Source: Flavobacterium sp.
Lineage (GTDB): Bacteria > Bacteroidota > Bacteroidia > Flavobacteriales > Flavobacteriaceae
Reading direction: 5' to 3'
DNA length: 64,000 nt
Assembly: GCA_042091515.1 (NCBI GenBank)
Contig: JBELHH010000002.1
Location: forward strand, 62,450-126,449
The position numbers were made by a program, and so were the translations under genes. Shown one piece after another: positions 56,749 to 63,312 of the stretch (position 1 is its first letter; each line of letters begins with the position of its first letter). The notes beneath the pieces were generated by a model. It was given only the letters and a program-made list of their open reading frames with translations, ran no database searches and was not told where the DNA came from.

Positions 56749-59700
56749 TTATTCTATCTTTAATCTAATCCCTTTTGAATTACTAGAGAACTCTGGAGCA
56801 TACATGCTTTGAATGGTTGTAATCCCATTGGAAAAGTTTCCACTATTATTGGCTCGAAAATCATACTCAAAAATATATGTGCCTTTTGGTAGTTCATCAA
56901 AGAAGAAATGCGTTGCGACATCTTTGGTGCTTTGATAATATCCTAAACCATCTTGCCATTTGTACATAGAAAGCACATCAATTGGTTCTAACCCAGAAGC
57001 TCTCATATCCTTTAGATGAACAAATTCCATATCATTTTTTGAGGTAATTTCTATACGAACCGTAATAAGGTCTCCAATTTTAATTGGAGTATCAAGTTTT
57101 ATGGGGGTTAGCTTTTCACCACCATTTCCTACACTTTTTATAAAAAGTGATTTTTTAATAGATAATGGCGTATTTTTTGAAGAAATAATTTTATCTAAAT
57201 CTTCAAAATACTGCCAATAAACACCCCCAAATCCTGTAACGCCACTTTTGTTTTGAATTTTTATTGATGCCATCTTGGAGTTAATTTCATTACTTTTCCA
57301 ATTCACTTTTATATAACCAGTACCAGCTTCTTTTTTAACAGGTTCTAATTTTTTAGTTTTAATTTTTTCATCTCCAATCCTGATTACAGTATTATCTGTC
57401 ACACTAAGCCAGTTATTACTCTGCATCAATAATGCATAGATAGCTTCTGTAGTAGCTTTGGTGGTATTCCATCTATTGGTTTGCTTGTTCCTCAACAGCC
57501 ATTGTTTTAATTTATCTACTTTTTTAGTATCCTTTGAAATTTCTGTAAATGCTTCTATTAATAAAGCCTGTGTTTCTATTGGTGATTTGTACCAATACCA
57601 ATTATTTGTATTCTCTTTCCAGAACCAGCCATTTTCATCACTCTGTATCGCTTGCTCTTCAAGAGCTTCAATAATGTTATTGGCTTCCTTTTTAAATCCA
57701 TTTCTTTCCAGAATAAGAGCTATCATCCCTTTATTATAGAGTGATTGGGTCAGCCAAGAGGATTTACATTTTTCAACATATAAATTAACTATCTTGTTTG
57801 TCTTTTCAGATAATGGATGGCTTTTCAAGAAAAAATTTCTGGCATATAAATAATGAATAGTACTGTGGTTAAGGTTTACATCGGTAGAATCCTTTTGATA
57901 CTTGATTCTATTTTTGTGATCATCTAGAAACTCATTATCCAAATAAGTAATTGCCTTTTTTAAAAGAGGCTTTAGCTTATAATCATTTTCGCTTTTAATA
58001 TTTAGTTTTTGTAAATGCCCAATTCCTGCAACAATATGTCTTGTTATAAATGTATTCTCCCTTCCTCCAGCAAACCAAGGAAATCCTCCTGAAGGTAATT
58101 GTAACTGTTTTAGCATGGCGACAGCCTGTAGTTGTCCTTCTTGTACTTTTTGCGAATCAAATAACTCAGCCAATCTTGCTTTATTTTCTTGATCACTTTT
58201 TAAATCTCTAACCCAAGGAGATTCAGAAATAAGAACGGACTTTAAAGATTCATTTGCCTCAAGAGATGATTCTAATTGTTCGTTGACTTTCCAACTTTTA
58301 AATACATCTTCTATCTGAGGATTTTTAGTAAGAATATCTTCTGCCAATGCATTAGCATAGAATCTTGAGAAGGTTTGTTCCGCACATTCATAAGAAAACT
58401 CAATAAGATAAGGTAATGACTTTATAGCCAACCAAGCAGGGTTGGATGTATATTCCAATGTAAAGGAATGGCTCTTTAAGCTATTTGAAGTCGGTGTTTT
58501 TAATTTTTCAAACACAACTTCTTTCGCTGTTCCCTTTGGCAACCACAATGGTTTGGCTTCCGTAACCAAAGTTCTATTGGATAATACAGGCAATATATTA
58601 GCTTCTCCATCGCTATGGGTTCCTGACTTTGCAAGAATTTTGTACTCGATGGCAGGAATGCCTTCAGGGATTTGCATTTTCCAAGTCATCGAAGTATTTC
58701 CTTTTGAAGGAATTGTGAAATTTTGATTGGATTCTAATGGAATAATTGAAGTGGAAATAGGTTCTGATGTTACACCGTTAAACAATTGCAATAATGCTGT
58801 GCCAGATAGTGTTTCCTTTGTAAGGTTACTGATTTTGGTACTTAGATAGATCGTATCTTTTTCTCTCAAAAATCGTGGTGGATTAGGAATCACATTAATA
58901 TCTTTCTGAGTAACCGCCGTTTTTTCTAATGCACCAACTTCAACTGATTTATTATGAGCCAGTAGCATGAGTCTCCATTTAGTCAAAGCTTGAGGAGAAT
59001 CAAAACTAAAAATAACTTCCCCATTTTTATTGGTCTTTAAGTGTGGAAAGAAAAAGGCTGTTTCTTTCAAGTCACTTCGTACTTCCACTTGTGCAAGTGA
59101 TTTCAATCCTTTTTTTGTAGTGATGATAACAACGCCATTCTTTGCTCTTACTCCATATAATGCGGTCGCACTAGCTCCTTTCAATACAGAGATATCCTCA
59201 ATATCATTGGAAGCAAGTTGGGCACCAGCTGAATCCATTGGAACACCATCAATGATGAATAATGTCTGTTTATTGTTTGCAATACTGCTATTCCCACGAA
59301 TGACTATTTGATTACCAGCTCCTGGAACGCCACTAGTCTGTGTAATATTCACTCCAGCCACTTTACCTTCTAGTTTTCTGGAAATATCCACAGAAACATC
59401 TTTAGCAGTTACAAAAGAAACCGAATATCCTAATGCTTTTTTCTCCCTTTTGATTCCCATAGCCATCACAACCACTTCATCTAAATGTGCTGAATCTTCT
59501 TCCAAAGCTACATTATATGTGCCAGATTTTGTTACAGATGCAATCATATTACTAAATCCTAAGTAGCTAAAGACCAATTCAGACCCAACTGGTGCATTAA
59601 TGGAATAGAAGCCATCAAAATCTGTAGTTGTTCCAGTAGATGTCCCTTTTACAATGACATTGACACCCGGAAGTGGTAATCCGCTTTCGTCAGTTATAAT

Positions 59701-62700: not shown

Positions 62701-63312
62701 TTTATCTTGTGCATAAAATTCCAAAGCTCGGTGAGCAAGAAAGTCATATAAAGTAGGTCGGAAACGGTGTGATGTTCTGCTATTCGTTAAAATGGATTGA
62801 AAATCCTTGATAGACTGCTTTTTTAAATCTTTCGATTTTGAAAGCGATTTTTCATAGTGGTGTGTAATTTGAATAATGAATGTATTGATATCCCATTTTT
62901 TAAATTCATTGGAGACTAAAGGAAAATCAAGTTTTGTCCGCTTACGAATTTTATAACGATTCTTTTGTAAATATTGATTGAGGTAACTTGCGTATACAGA
63001 TTCTAAAAGTGCATCTGTTGGAAAATTAGAGGTGTTGATTGTAGTTTCTAATTCTGCGATAATCTTTTGTTGTGCATCTTCTTGCAACAGTAAAGCAAAC
63101 TTGGATTTGTAGATAAACCCTTTTACAATTTGGTTACTTTGATTAGATCGTTTTGCCTTTCTTAAAATCTTATCTATGTTTTCATTGGCACTTTTGAATT
63201 TACCTTCCAGTTCTAATGTCTCAACTTCTTTCCATAGTTTCTCATATTTATTTTGAGAATTGGAAAATTGAATACCAATTATGAATAGGATTAATAATAG
63301 TGTTTTTTTCAT
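56749..63312 (-). CDS. Giant alpha-2-macroglobulin-family protein with a thioester motif and an embedded CarboxypepD_reg + TonB-plug module
   Basis: 2187 aa with a signal peptide and MG-like beta-sandwich segments. A SusC-like segment [24 protein letters not shown]...[32 protein letters not shown] spans 59107-59715. The CAEQ thioester motif lies at 58375-58386 in [14 protein letters not shown]. Confidence 0.85.
   Translation of the reverse strand: [2187 protein letters not shown]

Follow-up and report, generated by a model that had tools for sequence, protein, structure and literature searches.

A 64,000-nucleotide stretch of a Flavobacterium sp. genome (assembly GCA_042091515.1, contig JBELHH010000002.1, positions 62,450 to 126,449 of the forward strand), referred to below as the window, carries on its minus strand a gene (56749..63312) that forms a single unbroken frame of 2187 amino acids. 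The frame, together with its Pfam and NCBIfam matches, identifies the product as a thioester alpha-2-macroglobulin (A2M) of a subfamily of the FCB group (Fibrobacterota-Chlorobiota-Bacteroidota). Its bait region is occupied by a bona fide cassette from the N-terminus of a SusC-type transporter, consisting of an N-terminal extension (NTE), a TonB box and a plug. The first-pass annotation, made from the DNA sequence alone, had proposed an uninterrupted frame with a SusC-like block at roughly residues 1200-1402 and no barrel behind it; the frame is indeed open throughout, and a Pfam scan placed CarbopepD_reg_2 and Plug in that block, both over their cut-offs.

The cassette begins with the NTE, a CarboxypepD_reg-like Ig fold at residues 1201-1276 (59485..59712), which is matched by CarbopepD_reg_2 over residues 1202-1282 (76 bits) and by the SusC entries 6ytc, 9hfj and 8aa4. 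The TonB box follows at residues 1277-1286 (59455..59484), as read from the translation and from its alignment to the TonB box of SusC. It is succeeded by the TonB-dependent-receptor plug at residues 1294-1403 (59104..59433), which has a Pfam Plug match at 1294-1394 (48.4 bits, cut-off 23.9) and ends in the 31-residue SusC signature, over the cut-off of its NCBIfam model TIGR04057 (58 bits versus 46.2). The SusC/RagA model TIGR04056 is matched only at positions 2-218 of 981, with 260 bits and thus under its cut-off of 368. Because this match covers just the first 218 positions, the module represents a SusC front end without the barrel, as had been suspected. The gap between the plug and the A2M (MG7) domain (residues 1418-1503, 58804..59061), which comes directly after the cassette, measures 15 residues, and no room is taken by a 22-strand beta-barrel.

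The other Pfam matches over gathering cut-offs are MG2 at residues 582-676 (61285..61569), the A2M domain at 1418-1503 and the C-terminal bMG10 domain at 2050-2174 (56791..57165). A helical thioester domain (TED) at about residues 1613-1962 (57427..58476) was assigned from an AlphaFold2 (AF2) model, a fold match and a TED_complement match in the homologue P0006, and the translation has the thioester motif CAEQ at residues 1643-1646 (58375..58386). The motif had been recognised correctly in the first-pass annotation, but its span had not: YECAEQ occupies 58375-58392, and 58375-58386 covers CAEQ only. The protein starts with a predicted signal peptide of the signal peptidase I type (residues 1-19, 63256..63312), which ends in SNS before a Gln at +1, the family consensus ending in AQ. 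Both here and across the family, the signal has Gln at +1 and no lipobox Cys, which bears out the view that this is not a lipoprotein. A C-terminal domain for type IX secretion (T9SS) was not found in the window protein by Pfam. Secretion by that route was rejected, as the sole Por_Secre_tail match is internal and far under its cut-off. Given this signal type, the missing lipobox and the missing T9SS domain, the protein is probably exported, soluble and periplasmic.

Bait position, fold and authenticity

The place of the cassette becomes clear from homologues. In P0082 the Pfam order is A2M_BRD (971-1090), NTE (1199-1278), Plug (1299-1385) and A2M (1409-1495), whereas in a plug-less Tamlana protein A2M_BRD (968-1079) is followed by A2M (1261-1346); the cassette therefore sits in the bait region, where the plug had been placed beforehand. 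In the plug-less relatives the bait at this site is acidic and disordered and consists of an aromatic-rich stretch and then 50-70 acidic low-complexity residues, and the distance from the pre-bait macroglobulin (MG) domain to MG7 is about 130 residues in them versus about 290 with the cassette. Pfam A2M_BRD does not match the window protein itself, and its pre-bait MG domain (residues 1001-1115, 59968..60312) was recognised from the AF2 model as the equivalent of the A2M_BRD region of homologues. Behind it lies an aromatic-rich variable linker (residues 1116-1200, 59713..59967) of low model confidence and low conservation, which is present in plug-less relatives too. The bait slot is then filled by the SusC cassette of about 200 residues, partly predicted to be disordered.

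Residues 1001-2187 were modelled by AF2 with a predicted local distance difference test (pLDDT) of 77.6 and a predicted TM-score (pTM) of 0.65. The half comprising MG7, CUB, TED and MG10 was modelled confidently, the A2M core exceeding a pLDDT of 80, and the best Protein Data Bank (PDB) matches of these C-terminal 1187 residues in Foldseek were Salmonella A2M (4u48, E 3e-35) and native ECAM (4ziu, TM 0.71). The NTE reached a pLDDT of about 84, residues 1120-1200 lay at 44-56, and residues 1275-1346, which hold the TonB box and the first plug half, fell below 50; the TonB box is predicted to be exposed. The N-terminal region, described in the first-pass annotation as some 480 residues without a motif, in fact has a confident predicted fold. 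The model of residues 1-560 (pLDDT 88.8) consists of an all-alpha solenoid at residues 22-366 (62215..63249) and then two beta-sandwich domains at residues 369-560 (61633..62208) that resemble NIE-MG1 of ECAM (4zjh, E 2e-9, TM 0.61). A structural search of the PDB gave no good match to the solenoid, only weak ones to tetratricopeptide repeats (TPR), and a PDB sequence search with the N-terminal 500 residues gave none. The hidden Markov model (HMM) of the solenoid matches every full-length relative, plug-less ones included.

ECAM (YfhM) and SaA2M (5a42, 4ziq, 4ziu, 4u48) share with the window protein the MG array, the NIE-MG1-like sandwiches, the MG7-CUB-TED-MG10 arrangement, a CxEQ thioester in the context P-Y-x-C-x-E-Q-T, a bait slot between the bait-region domain and MG7, and export to the cell envelope. 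However, the sequences themselves are only marginally similar (E 2.5e-3 over a single MG stretch), and the short flexible bait loop of these proteins is replaced by the SusC cassette. Unlike ECAM, the window protein has neither a lipobox anchor nor a pbpC partner, and it has an additional N-terminal alpha-solenoid of 345 residues. Type II alpha-2-macroglobulins (MagD/YfaS), which lack the thioester and belong to the mag/yfa operon, also differ from the window gene, which has the thioester motif and stands alone.

With the SusC/RagA transporters (BT1763, BT2264, RagA; 5t3r, 8aa4, 5fq6, 6sli), the cassette shares the order and spacing of NTE, TonB box and plug, about 45-50% identity over 212 residues, and a SusC signature good enough for NCBIfam. 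In contrast to these transporters, the macroglobulin has no 22-strand barrel and no adjacent susD-like gene in its flanks or at related loci, its module is internal (residues 1201-1403 of 2187) rather than N-terminal, and the first half of its plug is hypervariable. The plug-less FCB relatives, such as those of Tamlana sedimentorum (L045) and Flavivirga rizhaonensis (P0366), possess the same solenoid, MG array, thioester and bMG10 domain, are 45-70% identical outside the bait and in Flavobacteriaceae often occupy the same syntenic locus. They differ in their acidic disordered bait, in some cases with a TonB-box remnant.

As the window derives from a metagenome-assembled genome, an assembly or annotation artefact that joined the 5' end of a susC gene into a macroglobulin gene has to be weighed. 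Contigs from three separate metagenome runs span 58600-60400 with zero differences and are identical across both junctions, the frame is open over its whole length, and the same architecture is encoded by isolates, for example Flavivirga rizhaonensis, Tamlana agarivorans and Kordia algicida. With residues 1100-1560 as the query, 1598 matches were obtained; among the 120 matches listed, nearly all are 2160-2230 residues long with the same Pfam set, and isolates of Flavivirga, Tamlana, Kordia, Flavobacterium, Polaribacter and Marinifilum are included. Fusion in assembly was rejected on the identical contigs and the homologues of the same layout, so that the proposal of one continuous gene survives and an artefact can be discounted almost completely. 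A marine metatranscriptome contig of 247 nucleotides, aligned to window 58884-59130 with 8 differences, bridges the plug-MG7 junction, which hints at transcription of a close relative in marine waters.

Conservation and turnover of the cassette

When 1.84 billion representative sequences were searched by phmmer with residues 1403-2187, 10,848 matches were obtained, 4170 of them at E<=1e-30. Sorted with HMMs cut from our own alignment, at our own thresholds for presence and absence, the sequences take two main forms, one of about 2130-2230 residues with NTE and plug and one of about 2000-2070 residues with neither. The alpha-solenoid and the core are common to the two, and NTE-only and plug-only forms also occur. 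The 80 loci examined come from Flavobacteriia, Bacteroidia, Chitinophagia, Saprospiria, Cytophagia and Sphingobacteriia, and Cloacimonadota and Calditrichota are represented by one locus each. Among named sequences, the full cassette is found in Flavobacteriaceae, Marinifilum and Puteibacter. The non-Bacteroidota phyla and most non-flavobacterial classes are plug-less, Pedobacter has an NTE together with remnants of a plug, and Ferruginibacter and one Chitinophaga have the plug only. Many such barrel-less proteins bear the JGI label 'TonB-dependent SusC/RagA subfamily outer membrane receptor'.

Conservation was counted over 113 full-length homologues with a core identity of only about 50%. All 113 retain the Glu and Gln of the thioester motif, and 112 retain its Cys. 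The TonB box, L[DE]EVVV[TV][AG][YM]G, which is present in about 105, is roughly as conserved as the thioester motif. The second plug half and the SusC signature are nearly invariant, and the conserved motifs of the cassette include the IRG arginine, DG and the signature. That the TonB box and the signature hardly change among cores this divergent indicates purifying selection, which clearly acts on the TonB box, on the NTE and on the C-terminal plug half. In matches to SusC proteins (E about 1e-33 over 212 residues) the TonB boxes are aligned. The same motif in Bt1763, 81-VDEVVV-86, is experimentally essential (PMC7782687), and its spacing after the NTE equals that in the macroglobulin.

Other parts of the cassette change quickly. 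The most variable segments, which are also indel hot spots, are residues 1121-1160 and 1291-1330, and the cassette as a whole evolves faster than the core: at 70-80% core identity the median cassette identity is 55%, and some pairs about 80% identical in the core are 40-49% identical in the cassette. The fastest stretch comprises the 40-50 residues past the TonB box, with 12-28% identity in three pairs that have cores 78-83% identical. A block swap of the whole cassette for another SusC N-terminus was not seen in these three outlier pairs, where the divergence is localised past the TonB box. Compared with three real SusC N-termini, cassettes are 41-51% identical, and cassettes of different A2M clades are 38-55% identical among themselves, so that they resemble SusC as closely as they do one another; they have either been kept to the SusC consensus or been exchanged with susC genes.

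The cassette has repeatedly been lost or gained in Flavobacteriaceae. In a FastTree phylogeny of 346 proteins built without the cassette columns, which offers local support values only and approximate change counts, the plug state switches at least 27 times and that of the NTE at least 28 times. Inside genera, proteins with the full cassette and plug-less ones stand as sisters (Tenacibaculum L009 and L049, for example, with support of 100), and the bait-region alignment contains nested deletions. These sister forms, with their shared synteny, led to rejection of the idea that the plug-less proteins are an old separate paralogue at the core locus described below.

Of the full-cassette baits, 112 of 175 match a strict TonB-box pattern, as do 8 of 19 NTE-only baits, 3 of 11 plug-only baits and 9 of 141 plug-less baits; the pattern is not matched once in the approximately 640,000 residues outside the baits of the same proteins. 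Remnants in plug-less alleles include LDEVVVVGYGTQKR (Tamlana) and LEEVVTVGYG (Lutibacter). Retention of the box in all plug-less relatives was rejected, as even a loose motif is present in just 17 of the 141. The baits of L021, L023 and L045, which are plug-only and plug-less alleles, show a plug-like L(S/R)G(R/K)V(S/A)G(V/I) before the TonB box, whereas in SusC it stands after it, and this misplaced motif may be a rearranged or duplicated remnant.

Such turnover would be expected if a 5' fragment of susC had been captured once in a tolerant bait loop and were now eroding as a spacer without a specific role. The many independent full or partial deletions that leave remnants, the faster evolution of the cassette relative to the core and the tolerance of bait loops for insertions are all compatible with this neutral scenario. 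On the other hand, intact cassettes are still 42-51% identical to SusC N-termini and exceed Pfam and NCBIfam cut-offs across divergent hosts, the near-invariance of the TonB box and SusC signature extends over all 113 proteins, and one lineage, the accessory clade discussed in the next section, retains the full cassette in 31 of 31 members. Owing to this conservation, a neutral insertion is unlikely, and distinctly so.

Genomic loci and neighbours

In Flavobacteriaceae, full, partial and plug-less forms occupy a core locus with one synteny, namely genes for a Mur ligase and a TPR protein upstream and a DUF4136 lipoprotein, adenylate kinase, purK, purE and Obg downstream. The window gene and its nearest relatives are located off this locus. 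Flavivirga rizhaonensis (GCA_004791695.1) contains both kinds, a plug-less gene (P0366) at the Mur ligase-TPR...Obg locus (L087) and a cassette-bearing gene (P0006) elsewhere (L001). Over residues 1100-1560 the product of the latter shares 68% identity with the window protein, and the gene adjoins others for T9SS cargo and a GerE/TPR regulator. As this species has both copies and the accessory-lineage clade has the full cassette in every one of its 31 members, two lineages exist, one being the core gene, in which the bait is polymorphic, and the other an accessory lineage that always has the full cassette.

The accessory lineage is probably mobile. In Marinifilum fragile (L002:1-18000) the cassette gene stands between an integrase/RteC/HTH_17 block and a Metallophos-nSTAND NTPase, a setting that looks like an island of mobile or defence genes and hints that the gene passed horizontally from Flavobacteriaceae to Marinilabiliales. 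The closest full-length relative, P0003, which is 87% identical over residues 1100-1560, is flanked by genes for a 2579-residue SpvB/TcdB/RHS-type toxin and a DDE transposase (L085:1-13900). In Tamlana agarivorans (L086) a HigB-HTH_3 pair lies directly upstream of the cassette gene.

Flanking open reading frames (ORFs) of about 85 related loci were clustered, and eight large adjacent ORFs were scanned with Pfam. Those neighbours that recur are housekeeping genes, which serve as markers of synteny. In agreement with the first-pass annotation, pbpC, like any transglycosylase or transpeptidase gene, is absent from the visible flanks in the window, in which 688 nucleotides are visible upstream, from loci L001-L003 and L085-L087 and from the recurrent neighbours of some 80-85 loci; in all, eight related loci were seen to have no pbpC-like neighbour. 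Neither SusD, TonB/ExbBD nor a plug-less barrel was found among the window flanks, the recurrent neighbours of the approximately 85 loci or the eight scanned ORFs, and the sole adjacent TonB-dependent transporter scanned has its own plug. A conserved operon partner was rejected, as none of these candidates (pbpC, SusD, TonB/ExbBD or a plug-less barrel) is among the clustered neighbours.

These neighbourhoods bear on an earlier suggestion that the protein docks into, or competes for, an outer-membrane barrel. In a split transporter of this kind, the plug would enter a plug-less SusC-type barrel encoded elsewhere, and the macroglobulin would be held under an outer-membrane channel or would gate it. 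The plug residues that contact the barrel in transporters (IRG, DG and the SusC signature) are conserved, a point in favour of this reading. Yet no plug-less barrel or SusD gene stands beside the macroglobulin gene in the visible window or among the recurrent neighbours, the cassette has repeatedly been lost while the gene stayed, and the first plug half is hypervariable. A split transporter is unlikely at the window locus, and the arrangement as such very improbable.

Upstream of the gene, where the window ends 688 nucleotides from the start codon and so limits the view, window 63350-64000 contains only small hypothetical ORFs of 138 and 77 amino acids with no Pfam match. The downstream gap of 963 bp is gene-poor and contains, at window 56334-56369, three tandem copies of the palindrome AATCACGTGATT, repeats that were scored as a 15-pair hairpin in a terminator scan. 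A gene for a Sortilin/VPS10-BNR protein of about 1000 residues lies no more than a few kb from the macroglobulin gene in the window (52055-55162) and likewise in the Flavivirga core locus (L087:339-3332), in differing orientations; chance or residual synteny may account for this. A gene for an OmpA-family protein of about 640 residues with PD40 (TolB-like) repeats lies, in Lutibacter and some relatives, about 100 nucleotides upstream on the same strand (L010:4907-6814, L083:1646-3583, L033 and L050), preceding cassette-bearing and plug-less alleles alike.

A proposed decoy bait and probable TonB binding

The reading that we favour, with a probability of roughly 45%, is that the protein is a periplasmic protease trap in which the bait imitates the N-termini of SusC proteins and is likely to bind TonB as well. 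Sec would export the protein, and signal peptidase I would then cleave it. Without a barrel, the cassette, chiefly from the TonB box to the first plug half, would be exposed and poorly ordered and could serve as a protease-sensitive bait, as the AF2 model, the hypervariability of this segment and its position suggest. As the cassette would imitate those parts of the numerous SusC transporters that are most exposed in the periplasm, proteases that cut SusC N-termini would then cut the trap first, making the cassette an integrated decoy. By analogy with ECAM and SaA2M, cleavage of the bait would trigger the A2M conformational change, and the Cys1643-Gln1646 thioester would bond the protease covalently. 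The TonB box probably binds the C-terminal domain of TonB in addition, which would hold the anchor-less trap at TonB complexes beneath SusC transporters. The 27 or more gains and losses on the tree are as expected for a bait in an arms race. In function, the proposed decoy would parallel the integrated decoys of plant NLR receptors, unrelated proteins of another kingdom, in which the guard carries a copy of the attacker's likely target as a trigger.

Several points weigh against a decoy bait. Classical baits are not conserved, whereas the NTE, the TonB box and the second plug half are, and these motifs fit a binding role at least as well as a bait. We know of no protease that targets SusC N-termini. 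The disorder of the cassette in the AF2 model may merely mirror the absent barrel context. Many relatives manage without the cassette, which is thus dispensable for the core function. That the protein forms a thioester, traps proteases, resides in the periplasm and binds TonB is itself predicted.

Because its conserved motifs suit docking to TonB at least as well as a pure bait, the main rival to the decoy reading is a TonB-coupled device, in which the cassette acts mainly by binding TonB through the NTE and TonB box. It could be a tether to the inner-membrane TonB-ExbBD complex, in place of the lipid anchor of ECAM, or TonB could pull the bait from the macroglobulin ring, so that the thioester fires mechanically without proteolysis. 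Consistent with either version are the conservation of a predicted exposed TonB box to nearly the level of the thioester motif, its Bt1763-like spacing after the NTE, the retention of LDEVVVVGYG or LEEVVTVGYG in some alleles that lack NTE and plug, and the absence of a lipobox from the family. The conformational change of human A2M, according to one report (PMC9352918), follows retraction of the bait from the central channel.

Set against this are the plug-less relatives, 88% of which have no TonB-box-like motif and which also have no lipid anchor. As these relatives mostly lack the box and all lack an anchor, tethering is not a requirement of the family. Even among full cassettes the box is degraded in about one-fifth to one-third (21% without the loose and 36% without the strict motif), and no gene for TonB, ExbB or ExbD is linked at the loci examined. 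Moreover, we know of no precedent in the macroglobulin superfamily for triggering by force. On balance a TonB-coupled device is a minority possibility, though one to be taken seriously. The TonB-responsive trap raised in the first-pass annotation is possible because the TonB box is conserved. That the macroglobulin is a client of the TonB motor, either stationed beneath SusC transporters or with its bait pulled through the ring to fire the thioester protease-free, is a speculative and somewhat doubtful proposal.

To our knowledge, work on bacterial alpha-2-macroglobulins has dealt almost exclusively with those of Proteobacteria. A full-text literature search found no study of plug-bearing macroglobulins and, among the papers searched, none that joins a macroglobulin and a TonB box, in agreement with the first-pass annotation, according to which such proteins are annotated in databases and no functional study of them is known. 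The family is nevertheless large in Bacteroidota, as one search gave about 1600 cassette-bearing matches and the relatives at E<=1e-30 number more than 4000, and its trigger region has been built from the TonB-interacting module of a transporter. The mis-naming of such proteins as 'SusC/RagA receptor' can inflate counts of SusC proteins and of polysaccharide utilisation loci.

The natural series of alleles, with full cassette, NTE only, plug only, TonB-box remnant or none of these, offers ready comparisons. If the cassette is a decoy bait, periplasmic proteases that attack SusC are implied, with the cell's own T9SS cargo or the toxins of competitors as candidates. If it binds TonB, then TonB would have a soluble client other than a transporter, and if the macroglobulin is driven by the TonB motor, it would represent a new kind of energised periplasmic device for defence or repair.

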